From NCBI GenBank assembly GCA_964444085.1, contig CAYUGC010000001.1:9857-73856 (forward strand): a stretch of 64,000 bases of DNA, written 5' to 3'. The translations under genes and the position numbers were made by a program. Positions 8,343-37,613 of the stretch are shown here, piece after piece (position 1 is the first letter of the stretch; each line of letters opens with the position of its first letter). This stretch comes from an uncultured Bifidobacteriaceae bacterium (GTDB taxonomy: Bacteria; Verrucomicrobiota; Verrucomicrobiia; Limisphaerales; UBA11358). The notes below the pieces were generated by a model. That model saw only the letters and a program-made list of their open reading frames with translations. It was not told the DNA's origin and ran no database searches.

Positions 8343-8411
8343 AAACCATGTGTTTCGGCAAGGATTGTGCTTCCGCTGGAGGCGCAATCAGAGGACAATT
8401 TGAAAAAACTT

Positions 8412-10381: not shown

Positions 10382-10386
10382 ACCGC

Positions 10387-12546: not shown

Positions 12547-12741
12547 GGCCAATAGGGCTTCAAACTCCGGGCAACCGGCGATGGGCGAACCAAGCCGTTG
12601 CCCGGCTTTCGGGAGACCAGGCGGTAATTCTCCCGGACGCAGATGAAAAAACCAGATAACCGGCGTGTAGATTCCCGGCGCAAAATCGCGCTGCGAATTG
12701 ACCGGGACGAAGTCTGCCCGCAAATATTTTTGACCTGAACC

Positions 12742-15698: not shown

Positions 15699-15704
15699 CC
15701 CACG

Positions 15705-19727: not shown

Positions 19728-19737
19728 TTTTTGTTTC

Positions 19738-20604: not shown

Positions 20605-20612
20605 ATCACACT

Positions 20613-21368: not shown

Positions 21369-21376
21369 ATTTTCGC

Positions 21377-22234: not shown

Positions 22235-22286
22235 TTGTTTGGCGCGAAGTTTGCTAAAAATTAAGTTGGACGTATGTTCCTGAATT

Positions 22287-24317
22287 ATGAAAACCCAGAA
22301 ACCGCTTAAACGAGGCCGGCTCCAGAAAGCTGGCGGACGCTGGTTTTGCCAAGGTTATATGCTGGCTGGCTTGGTCTTGGCTGGGCTGGGCGTTTCGGTT
22401 CGGGCGCAGACTTCGGCCAACGTCACAGATTTTGGCGCGGTGGGCGATGCTGTCCAGTTTTACGTCAACACCACGGCTAAATCATCCATGGTAACGACGA
22501 CTAACCAGTTTTCCAGCGCCGACATCGGCAAGACAATTGAAGTCTTCAAGGTCGGCGTGCAGACCGTCGGTATCAATTCTTACGGCATCAATTCGACCAA
22601 CCGCCTCGACCTCATCGCGACGATCACCAACGTGGTCAGCGGGACGAATCTTTACCTTTCCGTGCCACCGCAGGCGACCTTGCAAAACACCTTTGCTACC
22701 TGTGGCACCGACAACACGTCGGCCATCCGCAAGGCCATCGCCGCTGCCGGCTTGGACGCGACGATTAATTTTCCCGACGGCGTGTTTCTGTGCATGCCGA
22801 CGTTTCACAGCGGAGCCGACGGCTACACGCTGGCGGCGATTTGTCTGAATCGCGGCGGGCTGCATTTTGTCGGCACCGGCAACACCACGCTGCTTTCGCG
22901 CGGGGCTTTTCGCCCGGAGGATTTCTCGGCCTATGGCTGGGGCACGCATCCGTATCGCGGTTATTTGTTCCAAGTCGTCGCGCCGGTCACGAATGATTTA
23001 CCGATCATCGTGGAAAACCTGACGCTCGACGGCGGCCTGCAGCAGGGCAATCTTGATGTCCATGGCATTTACGTAAACGAGATTGACGGCCTCGGTTGGG
23101 ACGTGGGCCATTGCGCGTGGTTGTGCTACGACACCAGCGGTGGCAACACGGAGACCGCGACACACCAGATGTTCACCAACATTGTCGTTCAGCACTGGCG
23201 CGGCGAGATGTTCAAGTCCATTGACCAGAATCGAAACGGCAACATCAGCATCCACAACTCGGTTTTCCGCGACGGCGCCGCGACGGCGCTGAACATCTAT
23301 GGCTCGTGGGACGTGACCAGCAACCGTTTTGAAAACCTGTTCCAAGTCGCGGAATACTTTCAGGCCTACTACACGAACACCTCGTATTTCCAAAACAACT
23401 TCGTCACCAACATCACCGGCAACGGCTGGGCGTGGAACGGCGGCGTGTGGACGGCACCGCCCTTCATCATGCGGGGCAATACATTTTTTTTTACCGGTGT
23501 TGGCCAAAACGGCATCCAGACGATGCCGGCCGCCAACATCAGCGTTTTGAACAATGAAATCCACTGCGCCGATTATATGAGCGTCTTCAATCTCGGCGCG
23601 ACCGGCGCCCAGGGCAGCGTGATGAACAGCAACATCCTCATCGCGGGCAATTCAATCTATGCGCCCGCCAAGCTGTCGGCAGTGTTCGGGTTTGGCGGCA
23701 GCGGCATCAACGGCGTCAGCGGCCTGACGATCTGCAATAACCATGTCTCCGTGCCGCAGCAGATTTTCAATGTTGTCAACGCCGGCCCGCAGCAAATCAA
23801 CGTCAGCTACTCTAACAACGTGATTGATTGCCCGGCTTCCGCATTTCAAACCGGCGCGCCGGGCGCTAACAATTCCCCCTTCGTGTTGGTTCCGGCCAAC
23901 AGCCCCTACACCGCCCAACCGCTCTATCATAGCAGCGTCCGGACCAACCTCATTTCCTACGCCGGCGGGCCGAAACAGCGTCTGGATTATGTTCCCACTG
24001 GCGACATATTTGTTCTCGACGATTCCACGGCCAGTCAGATTCCAGCCGGTGCCTATTTGGAATTCGATAACCGCACTAACCGCTGGGCAACCTACAACGG
24101 CGGCACTGGCGGCGATGTAATCGTGATTCCGTCGGTGAACCCGGTCAGCCCAATCCCCGTCGCCAGCGGCCAGCTCGTGACGTTCTATTGGAACGGCACC
24201 GCATGGACGACCAACACAGCTGCCATTGTGCCGCCCAATGGCGGCACCATCACCATCACCAATCCGCCTGCCACGCCCGTGCACACACCGCCGCCCGGTT
24301 TCCACGTCGTCCATTGA
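22287..24317 (+). CDS. Secreted right-handed parallel beta-helix protein (pectate-lyase superfamily-like)
   Basis: Signal-like N-terminus. NVTDFGAVGDA start typical of this superfamily. Many N/G/I/V-rich coil repeats (NNHVS, SNNVIDC, GNSIYA). Pro-rich C-terminus. Confidence 0.6.
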   Translation: MKTQKPLKRGRLQKAGGRWFCQGYMLAGLVLAGLGVSVRAQTSANVTDFGAVGDAVQFYVNTTAKSSMVTTTNQFSSADIGKTIEVFKVGVQTVGINSYGINSTNRLDLIATITNVVSGTNLYLSVPPQATLQNTFATCGTDNTSAIRKAIAAAGLDATINFPDGVFLCMPTFHSGADGYTLAAICLNRGGLHFVGTGNTTLLSRGAFRPEDFSAYGWGTHPYRGYLFQVVAPVTNDLPIIVENLTLDGGLQQGNLDVHGIYVNEIDGLGWDVGHCAWLCYDTSGGNTETATHQMFTNIVVQHWRGEMFKSIDQNRNGNISIHNSVFRDGAATALNIYGSWDVTSNRFENLFQVAEYFQAYYTNTSYFQNNFVTNITGNGWAWNGGVWTAPPFIMRGNTFFFTGVGQNGIQTMPAANISVLNNEIHCADYMSVFNLGATGAQGSVMNSNILIAGNSIYAPAKLSAVFGFGGSGINGVSGLTICNNHVSVPQQIFNVVNAGPQQINVSYSNNVIDCPASAFQTGAPGANNSPFVLVPANSPYTAQPLYHSSVRTNLISYAGGPKQRLDYVPTGDIFVLDDSTASQIPAGAYLEFDNRTNRWATYNGGTGGDVIVIPSVNPVSPIPVASGQLVTFYWNGTAWTTNTAAIVPPNGGTITITNPPATPVHTPPPGFHVVH

Positions 24318-24375
24318 AGCCGCCCGGTTGCGTGGTAAAAAATTCCCGGTCTTGCGCCAGCGGTGGCGGAAAGCC

Positions 24376-25617
24376 ATGACTTCCCCCTCAATCAAATTGC
24401 CTTCGTGGATTTGCAGCCAGATTGGCGCCCGCGAGCACTTCGCCATCCCGCGCGCATTGCATCTAAACGGCCAGCTCGCCGCGCTCTGCACGGATTTTTG
24501 GGCCGGCCCGGTGACGCGCAAACTGGCTGCCGGCAAGCTGCGCCCGCTCGCCGCGCGGTTTCATCCCGATTTGACGCGGCAATCAGGACTTGTCCATTCA
24601 TGGAACTTGCGTTCGCTCGGCTGGGAATTTCTCCTGCGCCGGAAATTTGCCGGCGAGCCGTATCTTGGTTTTATCGAGGTCGGGAAAAGATTTTCCACTA
24701 GCGTGCGCGAATATTTGAAACGCCGGACGGACTTGAATGGCCGTTCCCTTTTCTTTGCCTACGACACCGGCGCATTGGAATCGCTCGCGTGGTGCCGCGC
24801 ACAAAAAATCAAATGCGTCCTGAACCAGATGGATCCGAATCGCGTGGAAGTGGACCTGGTGCGCGCGGAGGAAACAAACTGGCCCGGCTGGTCCCTGCGC
24901 CGCCTGCAGGTGCCGGAGGAGTATTTCGCCCGGCGCGAACAGGAGTGGTCACTGGCCGACCGCATCGTCGTGAACTCGGAATTCTCCCGGCAGGCTTTGC
25001 TCCAGCAGGGCGTGCCCGCCGAAAAGCTGGTCGTCATCCCGCTGTGCTTTGAAACCGGCGAAGCCAATTGTGAATCCGAAATCGTAAATCATAAATCAGA
25101 CGCTCCGCTGCGCGTGCTGTTTCTCGGCCAGGTGATTTTGCGCAAGGGCATCCAGTATCTGCTCGCCGCCGCGCGGCAACTGGAAAAGGAAAACATCCAT
25201 TTCGATGTCGTCGGGCCGGTTGGAATTTCGCAGGCGGCCATCTCATCCGCGTCCGGCAACGTAACGTTTCACGGCCGCACCAGCCGTGATCAGGCAGCGG
25301 ATTGGTATCGGCAGGCGGACGTGTTTGTCCTGCCGACACTCTCGGACGGCTTTGCTCTCACGCAACTGGAGGCGATGGCACACGGCCTGCCGGTCGTCGC
25401 CACGCCGAACTGCGGCGCGGTCGTCACCGACGGCGCGGACGGCTTCCTCGTCCCGCCGCGCGATGCGGATGCGCTGGCGCAAACTTTTAGGCGCTACCTC
25501 ACGCAGCCGGAACTGCTGCCGGCGCAGGCGGCAGCGGCGCGGGGAAAATCCCGCCAGTTCACGCTGAACCGGCTGGCGGAAAACCTGGCGCAACTGGAGG
25601 CTGATTTGCGGAAGTGA
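24376..25617 (+). CDS. Glycosyltransferase family 4, with a repeat-encoded linker insertion
   Basis: C-terminal domain LRVLFLGQVILRKG...VFVLPTLSDGFALTQLEAMAHGLPVV. The inter-domain linker ANCESEIVNHKSDA is encoded by a heptamer array at 25073-25100. Confidence 0.75.
   Translation: MTSPSIKLPSWICSQIGAREHFAIPRALHLNGQLAALCTDFWAGPVTRKLAAGKLRPLAARFHPDLTRQSGLVHSWNLRSLGWEFLLRRKFAGEPYLGFIEVGKRFSTSVREYLKRRTDLNGRSLFFAYDTGALESLAWCRAQKIKCVLNQMDPNRVEVDLVRAEETNWPGWSLRRLQVPEEYFARREQEWSLADRIVVNSEFSRQALLQQGVPAEKLVVIPLCFETGEANCESEIVNHKSDAPLRVLFLGQVILRKGIQYLLAAARQLEKENIHFDVVGPVGISQAAISSASGNVTFHGRTSRDQAADWYRQADVFVLPTLSDGFALTQLEAMAHGLPVVATPNCGAVVTDGADGFLVPPRDADALAQTFRRYLTQPELLPAQAAAARGKSRQFTLNRLAENLAQLEADLRK
25073..25100 (+). 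repeat. Intragenic AATC-phased heptamer array (4 units)
   Basis: aatccga aatcgta aatcata aatcaga, in frame inside the GT4 gene. Its units match the hairpin arms at 62114-62185. Confidence 0.7.
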
Positions 25618-25683
25618 TTTTTCCGCGCCATTCGCCAGTTGTCTTTGGCCGTTCAACCCCGATAATCTTCTGGCTCGGAACTT

Positions 25684-27192
25684 GTGCTGAACCTGTTGTT
25701 CATATTTCCCTTTTCGTTTTGGGTCGTGATCGCGCTGCTGACCGGCGGCGGCATCGCGGCGTTCCGGCGCATCCACGACGCCACTAGCATCCCGCTACTG
25801 GCGGTGCTGGGCACGACCGCCGCCTGGTATGTCGGCGACGCGTTCTATAATGACTACGCGAACAACCACGCCAAAATATTTACGCCGGAGACCCTGTCCG
25901 GCGCGTGGTGGCAGGTGGCGTGGTTCATCCTCGTGATTCTGCTGACGGTGCGGCCGCTGCACGAAAGAATCAATGGCCCGCTGGCCGCGCGGCCCAGCGG
26001 CGTGATGCAGTTGTTCCAGCACGGCGTCGGTTTTCCGGAAATCCAAAAGCAGCTAAACATCCTGTTCACCGGCTGCGCGGCGGTGTGGCTTATCCTGTTG
26101 GTGATCGCACTGATCCTTCTGAAGGCCGAAATTCCCTATTACCTTTTCCCGTTCCTCGGCTATAAGGCGAACCCCTGGTCGCACGGGCGCATCGGCTCCG
26201 GCTTCGACGCGTTTTCCATCATCGCCGTCTATCTGCAACTGCTGACAACCTCGATGTTTGGCGTGGTTGCCGCGCTGGCGACCACGCCGCGCGTCCGGCG
26301 GCTCGCGTTGCTGTTCGTGCTGCTGTCGTGGCCGGCGTTCGTCTTCGACCGCACGCGCAACACGATGCTGGCGATGGCGGTGCCGGCGGTGTTGAGTTGG
26401 GTGTTCCTACGGCTGCGCGGCGGGATGTGGAAAAAAGTCCTCGTGCTGCTTGCGTGCTTCGTCGTGGTTAACACCTGGATGAAGTTCGTCATCGCCAACC
26501 GCTCCTCGATGAGCATTACCGACGCGTTTCACAACAAAGGTCTAAATCTCGCCGCCCAGGAAAAAGTCCACAACGAGGGTTTGAACATGTTTGAGGAATT
26601 GTGCTGGGTCAGCACGTTCATTGACAACGGCCAATACCAAATCAACTGGGGACAGCGCTATTTTGCCGAACTGGTGAACCCGATTCCGCGCGGCCTCTGG
26701 CACGGCAAGCCGCTCATCGGCCTCGACTACGCCATGGCGCGCGGCCACGGCGACGCCAACGACACGCACGGCGGCGTCAATACCACCATCTCCACCGGCT
26801 TTATCGGCCAGGGCGTCGTGAACTTTGGCCGCGTGCTTGGCCCGGCGGCAGCGTCCATTTTGATGAGTCTCTGGATCGTCTGGCTCGCGCGGCTGGACTT
26901 GACGGTGCATCAGCTCGGCCGGCTGCCGCTTTACAGCCTCGGCCTCATCCTGACTTTCAACCTGGGTCGCGACATCACACTCATCACCTTGTATCCATTC
27001 GTGTTTGGCGCGCTGGCCATCTGGTTTCTGGAACATTATCAACTCATCAAGACGTCGCCGGAAACCAGCGTCACAGTGTCCTCGCCAACGCAAAAAAGTG
27101 CCCGCACAGCCGCTGCCGGAAAAATGCCCTTTGCCCGGCGCGCGACCGGCGGCTTTGTCCGGCGCGACAATTTTCAACGCCCGCCGAATTGA
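25684..27192 (+). CDS. Putative O-antigen/EPS polymerase (Wzy-like) polytopic membrane protein
   Basis: About 10-12 hydrophobic segments with a large loop in the C-terminal third. GTG start. Lies in a Wzc/Wza context. No sequence motif is diagnostic. Confidence 0.5.
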   Translation: MLNLLFIFPFSFWVVIALLTGGGIAAFRRIHDATSIPLLAVLGTTAAWYVGDAFYNDYANNHAKIFTPETLSGAWWQVAWFILVILLTVRPLHERINGPLAARPSGVMQLFQHGVGFPEIQKQLNILFTGCAAVWLILLVIALILLKAEIPYYLFPFLGYKANPWSHGRIGSGFDAFSIIAVYLQLLTTSMFGVVAALATTPRVRRLALLFVLLSWPAFVFDRTRNTMLAMAVPAVLSWVFLRLRGGMWKKVLVLLACFVVVNTWMKFVIANRSSMSITDAFHNKGLNLAAQEKVHNEGLNMFEELCWVSTFIDNGQYQINWGQRYFAELVNPIPRGLWHGKPLIGLDYAMARGHGDANDTHGGVNTTISTGFIGQGVVNFGRVLGPAAASILMSLWIVWLARLDLTVHQLGRLPLYSLGLILTFNLGRDITLITLYPFVFGALAIWFLEHYQLIKTSPETSVTVSSPTQKSARTAAAGKMPFARRATGGFVRRDNFQRPPN

Positions 27193-27208
27193 TCCGAAAT
27201 AATCCAAC

Positions 27209-28444
27209 GTGCAAAATTCCCCCAACAATTTTTCCCTGCCCAAGGACACGCGCGTCGCCGTGTTGTTCCAGCGCTTCGGTCCGTATCACCACGCGCGGCT
27301 CAACGCCGCCGGGCGGTTGATGTCCGTCTGCGGCATCGAGGCGTGTGGCATGGAAAATACCTACGCCTGGGACAAGGTCGAGGGCGCGGCGGCGTTCACG
27401 CGCGTCACGCTCACCGAGCGCGAGACCGACACATGCGAGTGGCGGCAGGAGTTGCGCCGGAAAACGTGGCAGGCACTGGATGAATTAAAACCGCAGGTCG
27501 TCGCCGTCCCCGGCTGGTCGTTCGTGGATGCGTTGAGTGCGCTCGAATGGTGCGCGGCCAGCCACACGCCGGCGGTGGTCATGTCCGAAAGCACCGCGTG
27601 GGACGAGCGCCGCACGTTTTGGAAGGAGTGGATCAAGACGCGGCTGGTGAAGATGAATTCCGCCGGGCTGGCCGGCGGCACGCCACACGAAAAATATCTC
27701 GTCCAGCTCGGCCTCGAACCGGAGCGCGTCTTTTCCGGCTACGATGTCGTGGACAACGATTATTTCCGGCAACAGACCGACGCCGCCCGCGCCGACGCGC
27801 CAAACCTGCGGCAAAAATTTGGTCTGCCGGAAAAATATTTTCTGGCGAGCGCGCGGTTCGTCGGGAAGAAAAACCTGCTCTGCCTGCTGCAAGCCTACGC
27901 GCGTTACCGTGAACTGGCGCAAAGCAAAAACGACCGCTGGTCGTTCGTTTTGCTCGGCGACGGCCCGCTCAAGCCGGACCTGAAGCAATTGGTTGCCGAT
28001 TTGAAACTGGACGGCTGTGTCCAGATGCCCGGCTTCAAGCAATACCACGAACTGCCGGTTTATTTCGGCCTTGCCGGCGCATTCGTCCACGCCAGCACGA
28101 CCGAGCAGTGGGGTCTCGTCGTCAACGAGGCGATGGCTTCCGGCCTGCCAGTGCTGGTGTCCAACCGCTGCGGTTGTGCGGCGGATCTGGTTTCGGCGGG
28201 CGTCAACGGCTTCCAATTTGACCCCGGGAAAACCGATGAACTCGCGGAACTGCTCCGCAAAATTTCCGCGCCAGATTTTCCGCTCGCCAATTTCCGCGCG
28301 GCCAGCCGCAAAATTGTCTCCGTGTGGGGGCCGGAGCGTTTCGCCACCGGCCTGCGCGACGCCGTGGCCGTCGCCCTGAAATACCCGCACCCGCGCCTTG
28401 GCTGGCTCGACCGCGCGCTGCTGCGTTTGATGCTGCGCCGGTGA
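27209..28444 (+). CDS. Glycosyltransferase family 4
   Basis: FLASARFVGKKN. AFVHASTTEQWGLVVNEAMASGLPVLVS (E-x7-E region). Confidence 0.75.
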   Translation: MQNSPNNFSLPKDTRVAVLFQRFGPYHHARLNAAGRLMSVCGIEACGMENTYAWDKVEGAAAFTRVTLTERETDTCEWRQELRRKTWQALDELKPQVVAVPGWSFVDALSALEWCAASHTPAVVMSESTAWDERRTFWKEWIKTRLVKMNSAGLAGGTPHEKYLVQLGLEPERVFSGYDVVDNDYFRQQTDAARADAPNLRQKFGLPEKYFLASARFVGKKNLLCLLQAYARYRELAQSKNDRWSFVLLGDGPLKPDLKQLVADLKLDGCVQMPGFKQYHELPVYFGLAGAFVHASTTEQWGLVVNEAMASGLPVLVSNRCGCAADLVSAGVNGFQFDPGKTDELAELLRKISAPDFPLANFRAASRKIVSVWGPERFATGLRDAVAVALKYPHPRLGWLDRALLRLMLRR

Positions 28445-28468
28445 AGCGCGCCGATTTTCCATTTTGAA

Positions 28469-29695
28469 ATGATCAAGTCCGCTCATCTCACGGCGTCGGT
28501 TTCGCGCAAGGCCGGCGGGCTGTTTGACGCGGTGCTGCGGTTGGCGCAGTCGGAGCAGCAGCTCGGCGCGACGGTGAAAGCCTTCGGCCTGCGCGACGAA
28601 AACACCGATGCGGATCTGCCGGCATGGGCACCGGCACCGGTGGCGGCATTTCCGCCTGGCTGGCCGAACGGCATCGGTCGCGCGCCCGGATTTCTTGCGG
28701 AGCTGGAGGCGTTCGCGCCGGACATCTGCCACACGCATGGCTTGTGGCTTTATCCCAGCGTCGCCGTCAATAATTACGGACGAAAAACCAAACGGCCTTG
28801 CGTCATCTCGCCACACGGGATGCTCGACCCGTGGGCGCTGAAAAATTCGCGCTGGAAAAAACAAATCGCGTGGTATTTATTTGAAGCGGCGCACCTGCGC
28901 GGCGCGCGCTGCCTCCGTGCGCTTTGCCAGTCAGAAGCTGATTCCATCCGCCAGCTCGGACTCAAAAACGAGATCGTGGTCATCCCGAACGGGATTGATT
29001 TGCCGTCCGGCGTGACGCCCGCCGCGCCACCATGGAATAATTTTGTCGCGCCCGGGAAAAAAGTATTGCTCTTCCTGAGCCGGATTCATCCGAAGAAAGG
29101 GTTGGTCAATTTGCTGAAAGCGTGGCCGGCAAATCAGCAATCGGCAATCGGCAATCAGCAATCTGGTGATTGGGTTCTCGCCATCGCCGGCTGGGAGCAA
29201 GGTGGACACGAAGCGGAGTTGAAACAGCTTTGTAACGACCGGGAAATTCCCTTCGCCGACATTCGCGAGCCATCCTCCATTCTCCATTCTCCATCCTCCG
29301 TGCTGTTTCTCGGCCCGCAGTTCAACGCCAACAAAGTCGCGTGTTATCATCATTGCAACGCGTTCGTGTTGCCGTCGTTCAGCGAAGGTTTGCCAATGGT
29401 CGTGCTCGAGGCGTGGGCGAATGCCAAGCCGGTGCTGATGACGCCGGAATGTAATTTGCCGGAAGGTTTTCCAGCCGGCGCGGCGCTGAAAATCGAACCA
29501 AACGAAGCGGGCATCGCCGCCGGCCTGCAAAATCTTTTTGCCATGAGCGGCGCAGATCGCGCCGCGATGGGCAACCGTGCGCGGATGCTGGTGGAAGCTC
29601 ACTTCACTTGGACGCAAGTTGGCAGCCAGATGCACGCTGTCCACGAATGGATTTTGGGCGGCGGCGCCAGGCCGAATTGCGTCTTGGACGCTTGA
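28469..29695 (+). CDS. Glycosyltransferase family 4, with two repeat-encoded insertions
   Basis: LLFLSRIHPKKG. AFVLPSFSEGLPMVVLEAWANAKPVLMT. Low-complexity peptides ANQQSAIGNQQSG and EPSSILHSPSS are encoded by heptamer arrays. Confidence 0.75.
   Translation: MIKSAHLTASVSRKAGGLFDAVLRLAQSEQQLGATVKAFGLRDENTDADLPAWAPAPVAAFPPGWPNGIGRAPGFLAELEAFAPDICHTHGLWLYPSVAVNNYGRKTKRPCVISPHGMLDPWALKNSRWKKQIAWYLFEAAHLRGARCLRALCQSEADSIRQLGLKNEIVVIPNGIDLPSGVTPAAPPWNNFVAPGKKVLLFLSRIHPKKGLVNLLKAWPANQQSAIGNQQSGDWVLAIAGWEQGGHEAELKQLCNDREIPFADIREPSSILHSPSSVLFLGPQFNANKVACYHHCNAFVLPSFSEGLPMVVLEAWANAKPVLMTPECNLPEGFPAGAALKIEPNEAGIAAGLQNLFAMSGADRAAMGNRARMLVEAHFTWTQVGSQMHAVHEWILGGGARPNCVLDA
29132..29166 (+). repeat. Intragenic heptamer array aatcagc aatcggc aatcggc aatcagc aatctgg
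   Basis: Read directly. ABBA arrangement of two unit variants. The reverse complement of the array at 58544-58575 uses the same aatcggc unit. Confidence 0.7.
29270..29299 (+). repeat. Intragenic heptamer array ccatcct ccattct ccattct ccatcct
   Basis: Read directly. ABBA arrangement, 104 nt downstream of the previous array in the same gene. Confidence 0.7.
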
Positions 29696-29727
29696 AGCGG
29701 CGCGCGGAAAACCTTTACCCTTTGACC

Positions 29728-30309
29728 ATGAGCGAAACGTCATCCCAGCCCGGCGGCCAGCCGACGGTGGATTTGTCGAGCTATTCGCCCGGCCGGTTTG
29801 ACCGCGGCGCGGGCCGGCTGAAAGAGGTGCTTTGGCTCGTCGTCAGCCTGGTTTTGTTCCGGCTGTGTCCGTTCAGTTTTTCGGCGCTGAAATGTTCCGT
29901 CCTTCGGGCGTTCGGCGCAAAGGTTGGGAAAAATGTCACCATCAAGCCGCAGGTGAAAATCACGTTTCCGTGGAAGCTCACCGTCGGCGACCACGTCTGG
30001 CTCGGTGAGGAAAGCTGGCTGCTGAATCTCGAACTCATCACCGTCGGTAGCCACGTCTGCATTTCGCAGCGCGCGTTTCTTTGCACCGGCAGCCACGATT
30101 ACAAACGCGCCAGTTTCAATCTCATTACGAAACAAATCATTGTCGAAAACGGCGCGTGGCTTGGCGCGGGCTGTTGGGTCGGGCCGGGCGTCGCGGTCGG
30201 CGCGCACGCCGTTTTGACCGCCGGTTCCGTGGCGGCCAAAAATCTGGAGGCGAATGGAATTTATCGCGGCAACCCCGCCGTGTTTGTGAAGCCGCGCATC
30301 ATTTCCTGA
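29728..30309 (+). CDS. Hexapeptide-repeat acetyltransferase (WcaF-like)
   Basis: N-terminal membrane-associated segment VLWLVVSLVLFRLCPF. Left-handed beta-helix repeats (GKNVTIKPQVKI, GDHVWLGEESWL, GSHVCISQRAFL, GAWLGAGCWVGPGVAVGAHAVL). Confidence 0.75.
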   Translation: MSETSSQPGGQPTVDLSSYSPGRFDRGAGRLKEVLWLVVSLVLFRLCPFSFSALKCSVLRAFGAKVGKNVTIKPQVKITFPWKLTVGDHVWLGEESWLLNLELITVGSHVCISQRAFLCTGSHDYKRASFNLITKQIIVENGAWLGAGCWVGPGVAVGAHAVLTAGSVAAKNLEANGIYRGNPAVFVKPRIIS

Positions 30310-30316
30310 AAAATTC

Positions 30317-31891
30317 ATGGCTGTGCTCCAAAAAATCTTCTGCCGCCAATGGGCGCTGCTGGCGTTGCCGCTCGGCTACCTGTGGTTCCGGCTGATTGAC
30401 AATCTGCGGCTGGAATGGTCGTCCAATCCGCAATACAGCTACGGCCTCGTCGTGCCGCTGCTGGTCGCCGGTCTGCTCCTGCGCCGCTGGCATCACGCGA
30501 AACAAATTCCGCACGATGATTCTGCCGCCGGGAAATTTCTTTTGCCGGCGCTGCTCTGCGGTGCACTCGCATTTTTTTACCTGCCGACACGGCTGATTGA
30601 GGAAGCCACTCCGGAATGGCGTCCGATTCAATGGCTGCTCGGCATCGAGACCATCGGCCTGACGCTTTACGCAATTCGGCTCGCCGGTGGAAAATTCTGG
30701 CGGCGGCAACTGGCCTTTCCCATTGCGTTCTTTCTGGTCGCGATTCCGTGGCCCACGCTGTTAGAAGCGCCAATCATCCAGGGCTTGAGTCGCATGAACG
30801 CCGGCATGGTCGTCAACGTCCTCGGCTTCCTCGACGTGCCGGCCATCCAGCACGGCAACGTCATCGAGGTTAGCACCGGACTCGTCGGCATCAACGACGC
30901 GTGCAGCGGCATCCGCTCGTTCCAGTCCAGCCTGATGATCGCGCTGTTCCTCGGCGAATTTTATCTATTCAATTGGCGGCGGCGCGTCTTCCTGATTCCG
31001 TTCGGCTTCGCGCTGGCGATGCTGCTGAACATTTTTCGCGCGTCGCTGCTCACTTGGATCGCGGCGAAAAAAGGCACCGGCGCGATTGCCGAATATCACG
31101 ACGAAGCCGGCCTGACCATTCTGCTCGTCTGCACCGCGCTGCTGTGGGGCGCGGCGTGGCTGCTGAATCTGCGCAAAAAATCCGGCGCCGAAATTCTGGT
31201 GGCAAAAAATATTTCCAGCAACGCGACTGCCAGCGAAAATGTTTTCCGGCGCGTGAGCTGGTTTGGTTTGGTTCTGGTCATCTGGATTGTCGCTGTCGAG
31301 TGCGGTGTGGAGCTTTGGTATCACGTCCGTGAATCCCATTTGCAACCTGCCGCAAGCTGGACGGTGAATTTTCCGCGCGCCAATCCGACTTTCCAAAATG
31401 TGCCCATCACGACCGACGACCGCACGCTGTTGCGGTTTGACGAAGGCCAGAAAGGCCGCTGGCGCGAGGCCGACGGCACGGACTGGCAGGCGTTTTATTT
31501 CGCGTGGCATCCCGGCCGCGTCGCCGGCTATCTCGCCAAGCGCCACACGCCGGACATCTGCATCACTGCCGCCGGACTGAAACAAATCGGCGATACCGAA
31601 CTGACATTGATGACCGTTGGTAAAGTGGTTTTGCCGATGCGGCATTACGTTTTTGAGACGTCCAGCGGCCGGCTGCAAGTTTACCAATGCCACTGGGAAG
31701 CCGGCCTGCCCGCCGCCGCCTACACCGCCGAGGAATCCGCGCGCTTCAACCTCGTCCGAGGTGTCTGGGCCGGGCGCGGCAACCATGGGCAAAAAGTTTT
31801 GGAGGTCATCCTCGCCGGCTACGAAAACGCCGATCAGGCAAAAGCCGCGCTCGAACAACGGCTGAACCAGCTCATCAAGGTGGAAAACTAA
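30317..31891 (+). CDS. Exosortase fused to a C-terminal EpsI-like domain
   Basis: Exosortase blocks: NPQYSYGLVVPLL, FFLVAIPWP, catalytic-Cys block INDACSGIRS, NIFRASLL (Arg), YHDEAG (His). From about aa 300 there is an extra TM, then an EpsI-like domain with KRHTPDICITAAGLK. Confidence 0.8.
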   Translation: MAVLQKIFCRQWALLALPLGYLWFRLIDNLRLEWSSNPQYSYGLVVPLLVAGLLLRRWHHAKQIPHDDSAAGKFLLPALLCGALAFFYLPTRLIEEATPEWRPIQWLLGIETIGLTLYAIRLAGGKFWRRQLAFPIAFFLVAIPWPTLLEAPIIQGLSRMNAGMVVNVLGFLDVPAIQHGNVIEVSTGLVGINDACSGIRSFQSSLMIALFLGEFYLFNWRRRVFLIPFGFALAMLLNIFRASLLTWIAAKKGTGAIAEYHDEAGLTILLVCTALLWGAAWLLNLRKKSGAEILVAKNISSNATASENVFRRVSWFGLVLVIWIVAVECGVELWYHVRESHLQPAASWTVNFPRANPTFQNVPITTDDRTLLRFDEGQKGRWREADGTDWQAFYFAWHPGRVAGYLAKRHTPDICITAAGLKQIGDTELTLMTVGKVVLPMRHYVFETSSGRLQVYQCHWEAGLPAAAYTAEESARFNLVRGVWAGRGNHGQKVLEVILAGYENADQAKAALEQRLNQLIKVEN

Positions 31892-33112
31892 ATGCGGATC
31901 ACCCTCGTCAATCAGGCCTTTCATCCCGATGTTGTCTCCAGCGGGCAGCATCTGACCGACCTTGCGGTCGCGCTGGTGGAGCGCGGCCACGACGTGACCG
32001 TCGTCACCAGCCGCCGTGCTTACGATGATTCCACCAGGACTTTTCCGAAACATGAAGCGTGGCGCGGCATCAAGATATTCCGTGTGTTCAACACCGGTTT
32101 TGGCAAGCGCGCAAAATGGCGGCGCGCGGTGGATTTTCTGACATTTCTGATTTCATGTTGTTTCCGGTTGGTGCTGCTGCCGAAACCGGATGTCATTGTG
32201 GCACTGACCTCACCGCCGCTGGTGTCAGTTATCGCCGCCGCGTTCGCGAAACTGCGTGGCGCGAAATTCTGCTATTGGATCATGGACTTGAATCCCGACG
32301 AAGCCATCGCCGCCGGCTGGCTGTCGCCGGATTCGTTCGCGGCGAAATGGTTGGAACGGCTGTCGCGCTTTAGCCTGCGGCGCGCGGCGTCCGTGGTGGT
32401 GCTGGACAAATTCATGCAGCAGCGGATTCTGGCAAAAAATATTCCCGCCGAAAAAATTGCGGTGATTCCGCCGTGGTCGCACGATTCGGAAGTAAAATTT
32501 GATGCCGCTGGCCGCGCGCAATTTCGGAAAACGCACGAACTGGAAAACAAGTTCGTCATCATGTATGCCGGCAACCACAGCCCGTGCCATCCGCTCGACA
32601 CCATTCTTGCCGCCGCAAAAACTTTGGCTGCCAGCGAGCCGGAAATCTTCTTCTGTTTCGTCGGTGGCGGCTCGGAACATCGCCGCGTGAAAGATTTCGC
32701 GACGGAAAACCAATTGCCGAACGTCCTTTGCCTGCCATATCAGCCGCTGGAACAGCTCGCCGGCGTTTTGTCGGCGTCGGATTTACATCTCGTCGTAATG
32801 GGCGACCTGTTCGTCGGCCTCGTGCATCCGTGCAAGGCCTACAATCTGCTCCGCGTGAACGCGCCGATTCTTTACATGGGGCCGCGTCCCAGTCACATCT
32901 CGGAAATTCTGGACGAGCTGAACGGCCGGCTGCCCGGCGCAGCCACGCCGCACGGCGACCCAGCGGCGGCGGTCAAATCAATCCTTGAATTGAAACTGGC
33001 CGTGTCCCAAGCTGCGCGCAAGGATGCCGTGCCTTTGGACGGGCGTTTTTCCAAAGAAAATTTGCTGCCGCAACTGGTGGCGGCGATTGAATGCGCCGGC
33101 CAAAAAAATTAA
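31892..33112 (+). CDS. Glycosyltransferase family 4 (WcaI-like)
   Basis: MRITLVNQAFHPDVVSSGQHLTDLAVALVERGHDVTVVTS. FVIMYAGNHSPCHPL. The start codon directly abuts the exosortase stop codon. Confidence 0.75.
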   Translation: MRITLVNQAFHPDVVSSGQHLTDLAVALVERGHDVTVVTSRRAYDDSTRTFPKHEAWRGIKIFRVFNTGFGKRAKWRRAVDFLTFLISCCFRLVLLPKPDVIVALTSPPLVSVIAAAFAKLRGAKFCYWIMDLNPDEAIAAGWLSPDSFAAKWLERLSRFSLRRAASVVVLDKFMQQRILAKNIPAEKIAVIPPWSHDSEVKFDAAGRAQFRKTHELENKFVIMYAGNHSPCHPLDTILAAAKTLAASEPEIFFCFVGGGSEHRRVKDFATENQLPNVLCLPYQPLEQLAGVLSASDLHLVVMGDLFVGLVHPCKAYNLLRVNAPILYMGPRPSHISEILDELNGRLPGAATPHGDPAAAVKSILELKLAVSQAARKDAVPLDGRFSKENLLPQLVAAIECAGQKN

Positions 33113-33148
33113 GCGAACCACTTTTGATTTTACAACCACGATTACCGA

Positions 33149-35017
33149 ATGTTTGGTGAACTGGACAAATATGTGCTGGTCTTTTTGACCGGCCTGCTCG
33201 TGACCTACCTGCTCACGCCGGTCGTGCGTGGACTGGCGCACAAATACGGCGTCGTGGACAAGCCGGACGAGCGGCGGCCGCACAAGCGCATCACCGCGCG
33301 CGGCGGCGGCGTGGCGGTGGTCATCGGCGTCCACGCGGCTTGCCTGATGGCGGTATTGTTTCCGTGGTCGCAGTCGGGCGGCGCGCTGGATTTCGGCTGG
33401 TGGCAGAAATATGCGCTGGCCTCGCTGGTGCTGCTGGTGGTGGGCGTGGTTGACGATGTGCGCGGAATGCGGCCGACCGTCAAACTCAGCGGACAAATCG
33501 CGGCGGCTTTGGTGATGTGGTTTTCAGGCACGCGGTTCGGCCAGTTGCTGGGCCACGATCTGCCGCCGGTGGTGGATTGCGCGATGGTGGTCATCTGGCT
33601 CGTCGCCATCATCAATGCGTTCAACCTGATTGACGGCCTCGACGGCCTGGCGTCGGGGCTGGCGAGCATTTCCGCCGTGGGTTTGACGGGCATTTTGCTG
33701 ATGCAAAACGTGTCCGGCGAAGTGCTGCTGCTCGCCGGTTTTGTTGGCGCGTGTCTCGGTTTCCTGCGCTACAATTTTCATCCCGCGAGCATTTTTCTCG
33801 GCGACACCGGCAGTATGTTTCTCGGCTTCACGCTCGGCGTGGTTTCATTGCAAACCTTCACAAAAAACACGTTCCTGATTTCCATGACGATTCCCATCAT
33901 GGTGCTGGGTGTGCCGATTTACGACGCGCTGTTGGCGATCTGGCGGCGCTCGGTGCGCTCGTGGGTGAACGGCACCGGCGGCAAGCGCGGCATCATGCAG
34001 CCGGACGTGGAACACCTGCATCACCGGCTGGCGAAATCCGGCTTGAGCACGCAGCGCGTGGCGACGTTTCTCTATATTTTGAACGGCGGGCTGGTGACCG
34101 TCGGGCTGTCCATCATGTTTTTCCAGTCGCACGCGGCGGGGATTTTTCTCATCGCTCTGCTGGCCGGCGTGTATGTGCTGATGCGGCAGCTCGCCGTGAT
34201 CGAACTGCGCGAAACGGGCCGCGCGCTGCTGATGGGCCTGCACCGGCCGACGCACACGACTTTCAAGGCGCTGGCGTATCCGGTGTGGGATATGATTTGC
34301 CTGTCCGGTTCGCTGGCGGCGATCATGTGGTTTATTGAGGGGCTGCGCGTGGATTTCTGGCACATTTGGTTCGTGGATCTACCGGTATGGGCGACGCCGA
34401 CGTTTTCGCTGCTGGCGCTTTCGCGCACCTACATCACGCAATGGCAGCGCGCGCGCTTGCGTGACGTGCTGATGGTGCTGTGCTGGCTGCAGGCGGGAAT
34501 TCTCTTGAGCCTCGGCCTGGCGCTGGTGATCGACCCGGCGAACGGATCAAAATGGATCGTGCGCGCGGTGCTCGTTGCGGGCACGAGCCATCCGGTCATC
34601 ATCGCCTCGCGGCTGATTTACCGGTGCATCGAAGAGGCGGTCCTGTGGCTGCGGCGGCAGGATGAGGCGTCCGGCCAGCTGGAGCGCGTACTGCTTTATG
34701 GCGCCGGCACGCGGGCACAGCTTTTTTTGAAGGACCGCGCGCTGAAAATTTCCAAGAAGCCGGACGGCCGCCATCTGCTCGGTTTTATTGACGACGAAAA
34801 ATCGCTGTATTTCCAATGGGTTTATGGTTTCCTCGTGCTGGGCGGGCTGAAGGAGCTGCCGCAGTTGATTGAACGCCGGCGCGTGAACCGGGTCATTATT
34901 GTGTCCGAACTATTGCCGGAAAGCCGCGCGGCCATTCAAGAAATCACCACGCGGTTCGGTGTGAAGTTGAGCGAATGGGAGCCGGCGGAACATGAAATAA
35001 AACTGCCGGCAAACTGA
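33149..35017 (+). CDS. Polyprenyl-phosphate N-acetylhexosamine-1-phosphate transferase (WecA/MraY family) with an extra C-terminal TM + Rossmann-like module
   Basis: WecA blocks: GGGVAVV, VDDVRG, NAFNLIDGLDGLA, NFHPASIFLGDTGSMFLG, HLHHRL. After about aa 370 come four more TM segments, then RVLLYGAGTRAQLFLK...LLGFIDDE...LGGLKELPQLIERRRVNRVIIVS. Confidence 0.75.
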   Translation: MFGELDKYVLVFLTGLLVTYLLTPVVRGLAHKYGVVDKPDERRPHKRITARGGGVAVVIGVHAACLMAVLFPWSQSGGALDFGWWQKYALASLVLLVVGVVDDVRGMRPTVKLSGQIAAALVMWFSGTRFGQLLGHDLPPVVDCAMVVIWLVAIINAFNLIDGLDGLASGLASISAVGLTGILLMQNVSGEVLLLAGFVGACLGFLRYNFHPASIFLGDTGSMFLGFTLGVVSLQTFTKNTFLISMTIPIMVLGVPIYDALLAIWRRSVRSWVNGTGGKRGIMQPDVEHLHHRLAKSGLSTQRVATFLYILNGGLVTVGLSIMFFQSHAAGIFLIALLAGVYVLMRQLAVIELRETGRALLMGLHRPTHTTFKALAYPVWDMICLSGSLAAIMWFIEGLRVDFWHIWFVDLPVWATPTFSLLALSRTYITQWQRARLRDVLMVLCWLQAGILLSLGLALVIDPANGSKWIVRAVLVAGTSHPVIIASRLIYRCIEEAVLWLRRQDEASGQLERVLLYGAGTRAQLFLKDRALKISKKPDGRHLLGFIDDEKSLYFQWVYGFLVLGGLKELPQLIERRRVNRVIIVSELLPESRAAIQEITTRFGVKLSEWEPAEHEIKLPAN

Positions 35018-35043: not shown

Positions 35044-36711
35044 ATGCGCAAAATCACCATCGTCATTTCCGTTTTCATCGTCCTCTTGCTGGTGGGCTAC
35101 ACCGGCTATCGCGGCTACAAGGTCTGGAAGCAGGACCACTGGCTCACGATGGCCCGCGGCTTTGCGGCCAAGGGCGACGCCCGCAACGAAATCCTCTGCC
35201 TGCGCCAGGCGCTGACCTTGAACCCGCAAAATTCCGATGCCTGCCATCTGATGGCTGACCTCGCCGACGCCACCCATTCCGACGCGGCGCTGGTCTGGCG
35301 GCAGCGGCTGGTGGACTTGAATCCCAAGTCGCTCGGCGAACGGCTGGCGTTGATGCAGACGGCCATGAATTTCGGTGATTTCGCCGTTGCGTCCAACGCG
35401 CTGGCCGGCGTGGCGGCGGCGGATCAAAAGACCGCCATTTTCCAGACCGCCGCCGGTTTGCTGGCGGCGGGGGGCGGGCAAACCCCGGCGGCAAAGGCGT
35501 ATTTTACCGAGGCCATCAAACTGGACTCAAACAACTTCATCCCGCAATTGAACCTGGCGGCGCTGCAATTGCGCGGCGCCAACGCGGTCGAGGCGGCGGC
35601 GGCGCGGGACAACCTGAAGCGCATCAGCCTGACGGCGACGAACCTCACCGTCCGCCACCAGGCGAAGCGCGAACTGATTGCGGACGCCATCCGCTTCGAT
35701 GATTTCGGCACCGCCGAGGCGCTCACGAAAGATCTGGTCGCGCCGACGAACGCATTTTTCCCCGACCGGCTGTTGCGGCTGGACGTGTTGCTCAAGGACA
35801 AGAACCCGGAGCTGAATTCCACGCTGGCCGCGTGCGAACGCGATGCGGCGGAAAGTCCGGCCCAGCTGTCGGGCATGGCGGTCTGGCTGATGAAAAACCT
35901 TTCGCCGGAACAGGCGCTGGCCTGGCTGCAAACCTTGCCGAACCCCACCCGGACCAACCAGCCGGCGGCACCGCTGATGGCCGAATGTCAGTTGCGCATG
36001 GGCGACTGGAAAAAATTGCAGGTCGGCATCCAGGGCCAAAATTGGAATGATCTGGAATTTGTGCGCCACGCGTTCCTGGCGCGGGCGCTGCGCGGCCAGG
36101 ATTTGCAGGAGGCGTCCGCCGGCGAGTGGGTGGTGGCGCTGAACATCGCCAACGACCAGAAGGGCGCGCTGATTTCGCTGTCCCGCATGGCGGCGGCGTG
36201 GCAGTGGCACAGCGAGACAGAGGCGCTGCTCTGGCTGGTGGTCAACCGTTATCCCGAGGAACGTTGGGCCCCGCCGGTGCTGATGCAGTCGCTCATCAAC
36301 GGCGGTCGCACGCGGCCGCTGCTGCAGTTGTTCGGCCTGCTGTCCCGGCGGAATCCGGCGGATCTGGAGATGAAAAACAACTTGGCCTTTGCGGCGCTGC
36401 TGCTGGGGGCGCAGGAGTTGAACCCGCACGAATTGGCGAAGGAGATTTACACCAAATCGCCGCAAAGCCCGGCGTTTGCAGCGACGTATGCCTACTCGCT
36501 TTATCTGCAAAAGCAATATGCCGACGCGCTCAAAGTCATGCAGGCGCTGGCCGCAAAGGATTTGGACAACCCGGCGGTCGCTGGCTATTACGGCCTCGTG
36601 CTCAAGGCGACGGGCAATGCGGACAAGGCCAAGGTTTATCTGCGGCTGGCGCTGCGGATAAAGCTGCTGCCGGAAGAACAGGCGCTGTTTCAACAGGCAC
36701 TGATCAACTGA
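35044..36711 (+). CDS. TPR repeat protein with an N-terminal membrane anchor
   Basis: N-terminal TM ITIVISVFIVLLLVGY. Repeated 34-aa helical Ala/Leu-rich units (e.g. ALTLNPQNSDACHLMADL, AIKLDSNNFIPQLNLAAL). Last gene of the co-directional block. Confidence 0.7.
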   Translation: MRKITIVISVFIVLLLVGYTGYRGYKVWKQDHWLTMARGFAAKGDARNEILCLRQALTLNPQNSDACHLMADLADATHSDAALVWRQRLVDLNPKSLGERLALMQTAMNFGDFAVASNALAGVAAADQKTAIFQTAAGLLAAGGGQTPAAKAYFTEAIKLDSNNFIPQLNLAALQLRGANAVEAAAARDNLKRISLTATNLTVRHQAKRELIADAIRFDDFGTAEALTKDLVAPTNAFFPDRLLRLDVLLKDKNPELNSTLAACERDAAESPAQLSGMAVWLMKNLSPEQALAWLQTLPNPTRTNQPAAPLMAECQLRMGDWKKLQVGIQGQNWNDLEFVRHAFLARALRGQDLQEASAGEWVVALNIANDQKGALISLSRMAAAWQWHSETEALLWLVVNRYPEERWAPPVLMQSLINGGRTRPLLQLFGLLSRRNPADLEMKNNLAFAALLLGAQELNPHELAKEIYTKSPQSPAFAATYAYSLYLQKQYADALKVMQALAAKDLDNPAVAGYYGLVLKATGNADKAKVYLRLALRIKLLPEEQALFQQALIN

Positions 36712-36774: not shown

Positions 36775-36897
36775 TTGTCTGGCGCGGACTGGACTTCGCG
36801 TGAAGATACGAGGTGAGCGTGCTGATTATGCCGGGCTTCACGTCTTTTGCGCCACGCTTTTTCTCCGTCAGCCTCAAGCGCCAGCCGACCACGCCGC

Positions 36898-36930
36898 AAA
36901 AAAACAAACCGGCCATGGCTGGCCGGCTTG
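36898..36930 (-). terminator. Hairpin terminator downstream of the PEP-CTERM gene (minus strand)
   Basis: Minus strand reads aagccggccagccatggccggtttgttttttt: a GC stem followed by a T-run. Confidence 0.55.
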
Positions 36931-36956
36931 TCCTAATGGAACAAACAAAAACTGGC

Positions 36957-37613
36957 TTAAGAAACCTTGTCTTTGCGGAGGATGCGAACCGTGCTCACGC
37001 CAAACGGCAGGAGCAGCAGCACGCCGGCCACCACGGTGCTCGGTTCCGGCACCATGCCCAAAAGCGGCTGGGCATAGCCACGATTGGCATCGGTCAGGGT
37101 CAGGGCAAACACGCCGTAAGCGCCGCCGGAGGCGTTGGTGGAGTTGCCTGCGCCAAGGGCAGTTTGGGCGTCAACCACGAAGGCATTGGCCACGCCGCCG
37201 GGGCTGCCCTGAAAATACCAGATGGCCTGCTGGAGCTGGTTCGCCGAATTCGGGTCGCCATAGACATAACCGTAGCTGGCCAGATCGCCGGAGCCAAATT
37301 CGCTGTAGAGCCAAGCCGTGCCGAGAGTGACATTGGCCGGGCCGCCGCTGTTGGCCGGCGTCACCGTGTCAGAGGAGACGTAATTATAGGTCGTGCCGTT
37401 CCACGCATAGACCGTCGAGTTCAGGCAGAACGAAGTGAACGTGCCGAGACCCGATGAATTGACATTGATGGCATCGCCATAGGCACCGCCAATCGTTAGC
37501 GTGCCGGAATAGGTTCCGTTGTAGGAAATGGTGGCAAACGCACTCGTGGTGGCCAGCAGGCTGGCCGCACCAACGATGGCGCACAACTGTTTTACGATTT
37601 TGGGAGTTTTCAT
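36957..37613 (-). CDS. PEP-CTERM sorting-domain protein (predicted exosortase substrate)
   Basis: Signal peptide MKTPKIVKQLCAIVGAASLLATTSAFA. C-terminal VPEPSTVVAGVLLLLPFGVSTVRILRK, i.e. PEP motif + TM + basic tail. Confidence 0.85.
   Translation of the reverse strand: MKTPKIVKQLCAIVGAASLLATTSAFATISYNGTYSGTLTIGGAYGDAINVNSSGLGTFTSFCLNSTVYAWNGTTYNYVSSDTVTPANSGGPANVTLGTAWLYSEFGSGDLASYGYVYGDPNSANQLQQAIWYFQGSPGGVANAFVVDAQTALGAGNSTNASGGAYGVFALTLTDANRGYAQPLLGMVPEPSTVVAGVLLLLPFGVSTVRILRKDKVS

Follow-up and report, generated by a model that had tools for sequence, protein, structure and literature searches.

A candidate minimal thioester domain next to an exosortase-type sorting signal in a protein family of diderm bacteria

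The window analyzed here, 64,000 nucleotides of contig CAYUGC010000001.1 from an uncultured Limisphaerales bacterium (assembly GCA_964444085.1, positions 9,857 to 73,856), carries on its minus strand a gene for a 218-residue precursor made up of a signal peptide, one compact domain, and a C-terminal tail of the PEP-CTERM type. An earlier note on this DNA had proposed that the protein resembles the thioester domains (TEDs) of Gram-positive surface adhesins, in which a Cys and a Gln side chain are joined in an internal thioester. The idea that an exosortase-sorted protein carries a TED-like domain draws support from the motifs of the domain, their conservation, the predicted fold, weak in-register matches to the Pfam family PF08341, and the architecture of several paralogs; the pairing of residues offered at the time is not supported, and a different Gln is proposed below. 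The gene and its parts are listed in window coordinates.

36957..37613, minus strand: TED-like gene encoding the 218-aa precursor (signal peptide, TED-like domain, and PEP-CTERM-type tail), from the list of open reading frames (ORFs) and the sequence.
37533..37613, minus strand: signal peptide, aa 1-27, with a K-rich n-region, a hydrophobic core, and a cleavage site between AFA and T, from sequence inspection.
37053..37532, minus strand: compact TED-like domain, aa 28-187 (160 aa), with strands A-D, three helices, and strands P and Q, based on the domain-only AlphaFold2 (AF2) model and Foldseek.
37419..37430, minus strand: Cys motif F62-C63-L64-N65, which fits [YFL]CΦζ, with Cys63 the proposed thioester Cys, from conservation, AF2, and the PF08341 register.
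37209..37235, minus strand: helix motif L127-Q128-Q-A-I-W132-Y-F-Q135, which fits TQxxΦWΦxζ except for Leu in place of Thr and is proposed to lie beside the thioester without taking part in the bond, from conservation and a predicted helix at 121-135.
37059..37073, minus strand: C-terminal Gln motif A181-Q182-P-L-L185, which fits ΦQζΦΦ, with Gln182 (nt 37068-37070) the proposed thioester Gln, from conservation and its place in the last-strand region.
36960..37052, minus strand: PEP-CTERM-type sorting signal, aa 188-218, consisting of VPEP, a hydrophobic helix, and RILRKDK, from sequence inspection.
36898..36934, minus strand: GC-rich hairpin and U-run 3' of the stop codon in the gap that separates two convergent genes, probably a terminator, from RNA folding.

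The Sec-type signal peptide, read by eye, is MKTPKIVKQLCAIVGAASLLATTSAFA, with T as the residue after the cut. The full-length AF2 model renders it as a helix (residues 5-27) at low predicted local distance difference test score (pLDDT), and Ala27 is nearly invariant in the homolog alignment. Recomputing positions from the start codon at 37613 places Cys63, in TFTSFCLNS, at nt 37425-37427 and Gln128, in NQLQQAIWYF, at nt 37230-37232, where the earlier note had put them; it was also right that the mature protein has one Cys, the sole other (Cys11) falling within the signal peptide. The gene looks monocistronic, since a hairpin and U-run lie 3' of the stop codon and an intergenic region of 407 bp lies 5' of the gene, and monocistronic genes are typical for PEP-CTERM proteins (PMC1569441). 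The hairpin folds at -27.2 kcal/mol (z = -4.0 versus shuffles) and was missed by a simple terminator scan; scans of the 407-bp upstream region for sigma-70 and sigma-54 consensus sequences found none. An ORF of 214 aa lies antisense to the gene (36813-37457, plus strand). Most probably this is a spurious shadow ORF due to high GC, because the homologs and the family hidden Markov model (HMM) back the minus-strand frame only.

The window protein belongs to a large family. An initial homolog search gave 66 close homologs, a profile search with the domain by itself gave at least 512, and a HMMER scan of 1.84 billion cluster representatives gave 3,918 family representatives at E<=1e-3 and 2,741 at E<=1e-10; the family comprises roughly 3,900 clusters when counted at 50% identity. 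Conservation was counted over 284 aligned homologs, with identity down to about 30% in smaller alignments. Cys63 and Gln128, whose lack of conservation the earlier note would have counted against its proposal, are each present in 284 of 284 members, Trp132 in 283 of 284, and Gln182 in all 281 sequences in which the position is aligned. Phe62 and Leu185 are each found in 279/284, and position 65, two residues after the Cys, is E, N, D, or Q in most of the members. The whole domain has just 7-8 invariant columns, and besides the four residues that are hallmarks of TEDs these are Phe, Gly, and Ala. Judged from the alignment, such a pattern of conserved residues is beyond chance. The family consensus around the Cys, FC[ILV]E, is close to the motifs of the bona fide TEDs in this analysis (FCIE, FCVE, and YCID).

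Other explanations for an invariant Cys were considered. There is no invariant His, Asp, or Glu in the family domain, which argues against a triad of the Cys-protease or Cys-hydrolase type, and that reading was rejected. A structural disulfide was likewise rejected as the cause of the conservation, since exactly one Cys is present in 130 of 146 mature domains.

Across the family, indels are most frequent immediately ahead of the Cys-bearing strand (window aa ~48-57, nt ~37443-37472; columns ~100-145 of alignment A1), where insertions can reach about 40 aa. In solved TEDs a variable loop beside the thioester is proposed to set target specificity. A mean-field direct coupling analysis of the 284 sequences, directed at whether the Cys and Gln strands touch, gave a signal dominated by indel artefacts.

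In solved TEDs the thioester Cys lies in a [YFL]CΦζ motif on strand C; helix alpha2 carries, in the majority of TEDs though not in every one, a second motif, TQxxΦW(Φxζ); and the Gln that forms the bond lies in a ΦQζΦΦ motif of the last strand (PMC4450167, PMC6194298). The Gln and Trp of helix alpha2 do no more than hydrogen-bond to the Cys backbone, and the thioester can form without them (PMC4450167, PMC6194298). The window protein has all three motifs in the canonical order, FCLN on a strand, LQQAIWYFQ on a helix, and AQPLL on the last strand. The earlier note had taken Gln128, the Gln of the TQxA[IV]W-type block, as the partner of Cys63, an assignment that has to be given up because solved TEDs use the separate C-terminal Gln. 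With it goes a caveat that the same note had raised, namely that a Cys-to-Gln distance of 65 aa was too short: the short spacing was an artefact of choosing the wrong Gln. The objection falls away once Gln182 is taken as the partner, for Cys63 and Gln182 are 119 aa apart (family median 127, range 111-182), and the corresponding distance is 129 aa in CpTIE and 153 aa in PnTIE (PMC4450167).

The predicted secondary structure is consistent with this assignment. The full-length AF2 model has a pLDDT of 83, and the domain-only model has a pLDDT of 94.8 and a predicted template-modelling score (pTM) of 0.90. In full-length numbering, strands are predicted at 36-43, 49-53, 57-61 (with Cys63 just after), and 75-81, helices at 97-108, 121-134 (which holds LQQAIW), and 144-153, and further strands at 169-174 and 184-186 (Gln182 lying just ahead). 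Such a succession of four strands, three helices, and two strands is that of a class I TED, the topology of which is a six-stranded barrel plus a three-helix bundle (PMC6194298). The predicted domain has neither the alpha0 helix that marks class I nor the beta-sandwich insertion that marks class II. When the trimmed model was compared by Foldseek with 350,542 PDB chains, the top match was 5a0l_A, the thioester domain of Streptococcus pyogenes SfbI (E 2.5e-3, prob 0.98, 203 aligned columns, 16% identity), and the runner-up had an E value of 0.17. Since a TED had been hypothesized a priori, we take its ranking first, for a comparison that starts from a predicted model, as strong support for a relation to TEDs.

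Comparisons of sequence with known TEDs point weakly in the same direction. PF08341 is the sole globular Pfam family that recurs among the members, matching 4 of the 91 scanned below threshold (best E 0.018). Family member P0115 scores 14.1 bits on it (cutoff 22), with residues 72-157 on profile positions 2-75; profile position 4 falls on the family Cys in P0115, and the same register is seen in three genuine TEDs, namely P0154, the TIE protein of plasmid pLS20, and a Listeria plasmid TIE. An alignment of class II TEDs was built from 11 plasmid-borne TIE genes and compared by hhalign with the family profile, a comparison that covers class II only. It gave P values of 0.007-0.009 with the TED Cys aligned with Cys63, and the TED Gln (YQRL) fell on Gln182 in a single local alignment of low confidence. 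A homolog search seeded with the pLS20 TED returned 3 proteins; tblastn of plasmids gave only pLS20-type class II TEDs, and the tblastn query with a family member found nothing relevant.

Several results weigh against a TED relationship, and we set them out together. PF08341, PF20610, and TIGR03934 do not match the window protein at E<=10, so that the HMM search with PF08341 and TIGR03934 suggested in the earlier note came back empty. Profile searches of the PDB sequences with family profiles A1 and A3 found no TED. The hhalign probability is just 4-6%, whether the beta-sandwich insertion of the class II sequences is excised or kept. The geometric match to 5a0l_A is modest, with a TM-score of 0.44 and a root-mean-square deviation of 9.3 A. 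With the full-length model, the top 50 Foldseek matches contained no TED, just OB-fold-like and ABC matches or noise, and the TED match surfaced only once the signal and anchor helices had been trimmed off. Finally, the Thr of TQxxΦW, which the earlier note correctly described as replaced by Leu, is Leu in 269/284 members.

The negative sequence searches carry little weight, because phmmer with the pLS20 TIE, an experimentally supported TED (PMC8092201), also finds no TED in the PDB and because bona fide TEDs score a mere 24-25 bits on PF08341, barely passing its cutoff of 22 bits. TEDs may share as little as 12% identity (PMC4450167). The window protein as a whole finds nothing in Pfam, NCBIfam, or the PDB sequences even at E<=10, and the domain is not represented by any model of Pfam (2025) or NCBIfam (June 2026). 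Since it does not reach the HMM threshold, the domain, by its sequence, falls outside PF08341 as that family is currently defined. Taking the evidence on both sides together, we consider it quite probable that the domain is related to TEDs.

The place of the domain in its proteins bears on how the last-strand Gln is to be read. A PEP-CTERM protein carries a signal peptide at its N-terminus and, at its extreme C-terminus, a near-invariant Pro-Glu-Pro, a hydrophobic helix (~14 or more residues), and a basic cluster (PMC1569441). By inspection the window protein has this layout: its tail is VPEPSTVVAGVLLLLPFGVSTVRILRKDKVS, in which VPEP (188-191) is followed by STVVAGVLLLLPFGVSTV and then by RILRKDK. 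The earlier note's description of a PEP-CTERM protein is thus borne out by the PEP motif, hydrophobic stretch, and basic cluster, and finds no echo in the profiles, as PF07589 and TIGR02595 do not match the window protein even at E<=10. PF07589 does match 28 of 91 members (best E 1.6e-7), and VPDSG-CTERM matches 15/91. The sorting-signal types found in the family are PEP-CTERM, VPDSG-CTERM (PF18205), and VPLPA-like variants, and LPXTG is found in 0 of 284 members. Nearly all members are 200-290 aa long, with the domain running directly into the exosortase-type signal, and the conserved Gln stands 7 residues before the anchor Pro in 149 of ~265.

The tail is of interest in its own right. Near-identical tails of the form VPEPSTVVAGxLLLLPFGVSTVRILRK occur on otherwise unrelated proteins (window 36960-37052, minus strand; P0061-P0066; L016:7064-7774; L033:4020-4685), and generic PEP-CTERM HMMs score them poorly or not at all. 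The window-type tail appears, from such sequences, to be a Verrucomicrobial PEP-CTERM subtype.

A few members are built differently. Four large proteins of Verrucomicrobial metagenome-assembled genomes (MAGs), 485-1,627 aa in length, carry the domain N-terminally, without an anchor beside it; in them the Gln is kept as QDCL or QPVL (L039:7749-12632 and L051:951-5015 [Verrucomicrobiales MAG SMAG_U5986], L082:7842-9335, and L084:704-2161). That the Gln is kept where no anchor adjoins it argues against its being part of the sorting signal. In the L039 protein (1,627 aa) the N-terminal domain is followed by SdrD_B and HYR_4C stalk domains, and in the L051 protein (1,354 aa) by SdrD_B and SpaA stalk domains, an arrangement, N-terminal domain on a stalk, that is the architecture of Gram-positive TIE adhesins. 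He_PIG is also among the stalk domains of these two proteins, which are fibrillar-adhesin-like relatives in a diderm phylum.

Three other explanations have to be weighed against a Cys63-Gln182 thioester. The fold could be TED-like and yet form no thioester, in which case the Cys would be a free thiol (serving redox chemistry, metal binding, or as a covalent-catalysis nucleophile) or the four residues would be structural, in a matrix or adhesion protein that acts non-covalently. Similarity to true TEDs that stays below threshold, the low TM-score, the Leu in the helix motif, and a habitat and mode of anchoring unlike those of every characterized TED speak in favor of this reading. Nonetheless, we regard it as unlikely. 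The invariant set is the exact TED constellation of Cys, helix Gln and Trp, and C-terminal strand Gln; a Cys hydrolase or a transglutaminase would need an invariant His, Asp, or Glu, and the family has none; and it is not easy to see why else a Gln on the last strand should be invariant. That the thioester might instead link Cys63 to Gln128 of the LQQAIW motif is suggested by the invariance of both residues and by solved TEDs, in which the equivalent Gln adjoins the thioester Cys, so that the two are probably close here also. We think this pairing very improbable, given that the bond-forming Gln of every solved TED is the one on the C-terminal strand, that mutagenesis of Cpa-TED, as cited in PMC4450167, showed the helix Gln and Trp to be inessential for the bond, and that a perfectly conserved strand Gln is available at the canonical distance.

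It is also conceivable that the likeness is a coincidence, the domain being an unrelated and novel piece of PEP-CTERM cargo and Gln182 part of an extended exosortase recognition sequence. Every sequence-based link to TEDs is statistically weak, the distance from Gln182 to the anchor Pro is the same seven residues in more than half of the members for which it was counted (149/~265, as above), and in some unrelated PEP-CTERM proteins of these organisms, too, VPEP is preceded at a distance of a few residues by a Gln. Against these points, Gln182 is kept alongside PEP-CTERM, VPDSG-CTERM, and VPLPA-like signals, which are read by different exosortases, and in the four large proteins that lack an adjacent anchor; for both reasons the view of Gln182 as a part of the sorting signal was rejected. 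Moreover, the emergence by chance of a TED as the best of 350,542 PDB chains is very unlikely given that a TED was the hypothesis beforehand, and in the Pfam alignment the register matches that of true TEDs exactly. We judge coincidence to be quite unlikely. The Cys63-Gln182 thioester itself, which we propose by analogy with solved TEDs, has in our estimation a somewhat better than even chance of forming.

The domain nevertheless differs from both described classes of TED. With the class I domains of Gram-positive TIE adhesins (SfbI-TED 5A0L, CpTIE-TED 5A0G, PnTIE-TED 5A0N, and Cpa/Spy0125) it shares the three motifs and their order, a similar Cys-to-Gln distance (119 aa, versus 129-153 aa in class I), the succession of four strands, three helices, and two strands, and the absence of a beta-sandwich insertion, and SfbI-TED is its best structural match. 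It departs from them in size, at ~160 rather than ~205 aa, in having no predicted alpha0 helix between strand D and alpha1, in the Leu of its helix motif, and in similarity that falls below Pfam thresholds. The hosts also differ, class I TEDs being found in Firmicutes and Actinobacteria and the family in diderm phyla (Verrucomicrobiota, Acidobacteriota, and others). Class I proteins have an LPXTG anchor and carry the domain at the far N-terminal tip, whereas in the window protein the domain abuts an exosortase signal with no stalk between them; the TIE-type architecture of N-terminal TED, CnaB/SpaA-type isopeptide or ester stalk, and LPXTG is therefore not that of the window protein. The class II TEDs (BaTIE 6FWV, SaTIE 6FWY, EfmTIE86 6FX6, and pLS20 TIE) have a Cys motif, YCID or FCIE, like the FC[ILV]E of the family, a conserved Gln in an xQxL context at the C-terminal strand, as in the family, the same PF08341 register, and the weak hhalign similarity given above. 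They have in addition a beta-sandwich insertion of ~75-100 aa and a slipknot topology, whereas in the window domain a linker of ~14 residues joins alpha3 to strand P, and they occur in LPXTG or stalk proteins of Gram-positives, neither of which describes the window protein.

Compared with other PEP-CTERM cargo (PMC1569441; the floc-formation proteins of PMC9850573), the window protein is conventional in its signal peptide, PEP motif, transmembrane helix, and basic cluster, in its single-gene unit behind a large (407 bp) intergenic region, in its adjacent exopolysaccharide (EPS) operon with an exosortase and a PrsT-like tetratricopeptide repeat (TPR) protein, and in its soil or peat diderm host. 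Cargo domains are generally uncharacterized and poor in Cys, at 0.4% (PMC1569441), and the window protein is set apart from them by an invariant Cys in a recognizable reactive-site constellation and by its tail, which appears to be of a Verrucomicrobial subtype. An internal Cys-Gln thioester for covalent capture of nucleophiles is also a property of the complement C3/alpha2-macroglobulin superfamily, and the bacterial alpha2-macroglobulins of Gram-negatives mean that thioester chemistry is already present in diderm bacteria. Those are very large multidomain proteins of unrelated fold (an alpha-alpha toroid TED with CGEQ, the Cys and Gln being three residues apart), and no match of that type was seen in this analysis by sequence or by predicted fold.

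The genes around the TED-like gene are consistent with a role at the cell envelope or in the matrix, and the most relevant of them are these.

10378..35017, plus strand: exopolysaccharide biosynthesis operon with exosortase (Wzc-like AAA_31, ABC exporter, GT4/GT8/GT9, WcaI-like, and WecA-like priming transferase).
30317..31891, plus strand: exosortase, 524 aa, which presumably processes the sorting signal (TIGR04178, 54.3 bits, cutoff 23).
35044..36711, plus strand: PrsT-like TPR protein, 555 aa, convergent with the TED-like gene (TIGR02917, E 4.7e-15, partial and below cutoff).

The exosortase gene lies 5 kb from the TED-like gene, inside the glycosyltransferase-rich EPS operon, and the TED-like gene is convergent with the end of that operon, which is ~26 kb long with the PrsT-like TPR gene included. 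The enzyme fits no named subtype, staying below the cutoffs even of the closest ones (XrtD, 125 bits versus 400; XrtA, 96.6 bits versus 208), and may represent a so far undescribed kind of Xrt that serves the LLLLPFGxST-type tail in particular.

The association recurs elsewhere. Among 77 related loci from species-representative genomes, all of them in MAGs, most belong to Verrucomicrobiota, and the others include Acidobacteriota, Smithella/Syntrophus/Desulfatiglans, and Sedimentisphaerales; the closest, at 90% identity, is in a Limisphaerales MAG from palsa peat. Within about 8 kb of the TED-like gene there is an exosortase homolog at 13/77 loci, a window-type PrsT-like TPR gene at 10/77, and a full-length PrsT (TIGR02917, 376 bits, cutoff 312) at 14/77, so that a PrsT or PrsT-like TPR protein is near in up to 24 of the 77. 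Further small PEP-CTERM proteins bearing the same tail lie within that distance at 11/77 and 9/77 loci. The order exosortase, WcaI, WecA-like, TPR, TED-like gene is kept even where members share 33-49% identity.

Other features of these neighborhoods may be noted. A GloVer 'choice-of-anchor' tandem-repeat protein (TIGR03803, 404 bits) is near the TED-like gene at 8/77 loci (e.g., L064:9346-10821). TED-like paralogs stand in tandem at L020 (7689-8555 and 8896-9747), L028, L054, L060, L073, and L087, and several dispersed copies are found per genome, as with two loci on contig CAWDIX010000002.1. In the window itself, four ORFs in or beside the EPS operon, all on the plus strand, encode proteins of 676, 502, 445, and 311 aa (22287-24317, 25684-27192, 8367-9704, and 18792-19727, respectively) for which no Pfam or NCBIfam family came up at the thresholds applied. 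On the other side, divergent from the TED-like gene, a gene on the plus strand (38021-47032) encodes a 3,003-aa nonribosomal peptide synthetase (NRPS) of three modules with a thioesterase-like end, followed by a HetI-type 4'-phosphopantetheinyl transferase (46765-47778, plus strand; 146 bits, below the 370-bit cutoff). The NRPS is probably unlinked to the TED-like gene, because homologs of its N-terminus are found at just 3 of the 77 related loci.

With these neighbors in mind, we favor, at slightly better than even confidence, the view that the gene product is a secreted, exosortase-sorted protein of the surface or matrix, the sole globular part of which is a minimal thioester domain. As we picture it, the precursor would be exported by the Sec pathway and its signal peptide cut after Ala27, as the sequence suggests, whereupon the 160-aa domain is predicted to fold as a six-stranded barrel with a three-helix bundle. 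If solved TEDs are a guide, Cys63, placed where strand C ends, would then attack the side-chain amide of Gln182 in the last strand, with loss of ammonia, to give an internal thioester in an autocatalytic reaction, and Gln128 and Trp132 on the central helix would pack against the bond. The neighboring exosortase, under the general PEP-CTERM hypothesis, would cut at VPEP, seven residues past Gln182, after which the domain would remain tethered to the envelope or within the exopolysaccharide. A target amine, perhaps that of a Lys in another protein or of a free amino sugar in a polysaccharide or substrate, would open the thioester and become isopeptide-linked to Gln182, and the outcome would be a covalent and possibly reversible adhesion or a cross-linking of the matrix. 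Because of the EPS context and the absence of a stalk, we speculate that the cross-linking of matrix or substrate is favored over adhesion to a host.

The literature from 2015 (PMC4450167) to a preprint of April 2026 describes TEDs as exclusively or prevalently Gram-positive, in Firmicutes and Actinobacteria. In the literature that we searched, no paper links a thioester domain to PEP-CTERM or exosortase, and the papers that name both exosortase and thioester are unrelated. We suggest that the family is probably a third, minimal class of TED in a new phylogenetic and anchoring context. The fuller proposal, in which such a class (~160 aa, widespread in soil and peat diderms, and fused to exosortase signals) uses its Cys63-Gln182 thioester to couple amines of the matrix or of a target, is a tentative one, and we hold it at a little less than even confidence.

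If the family does form a thioester, covalent-adhesion chemistry would reach into environmental diderms such as the Verrucomicrobiota and Acidobacteriota, outside the setting of host and pathogen. A mechanistic and testable function would be available for the first time for a very large family of PEP-CTERM cargo, the role of exosortase substrates having been a question since 2006. The domain would be the smallest known TED scaffold and as such of interest for protein-ligation tools. On the fuller proposal, the consequence for the organisms themselves would be a protein that couples to their own exopolysaccharide, to neighboring cells, or to environmental polymers; in other words, the window protein and its relatives would serve as cross-linkers of a biofilm or floc matrix and not as host-directed adhesins.

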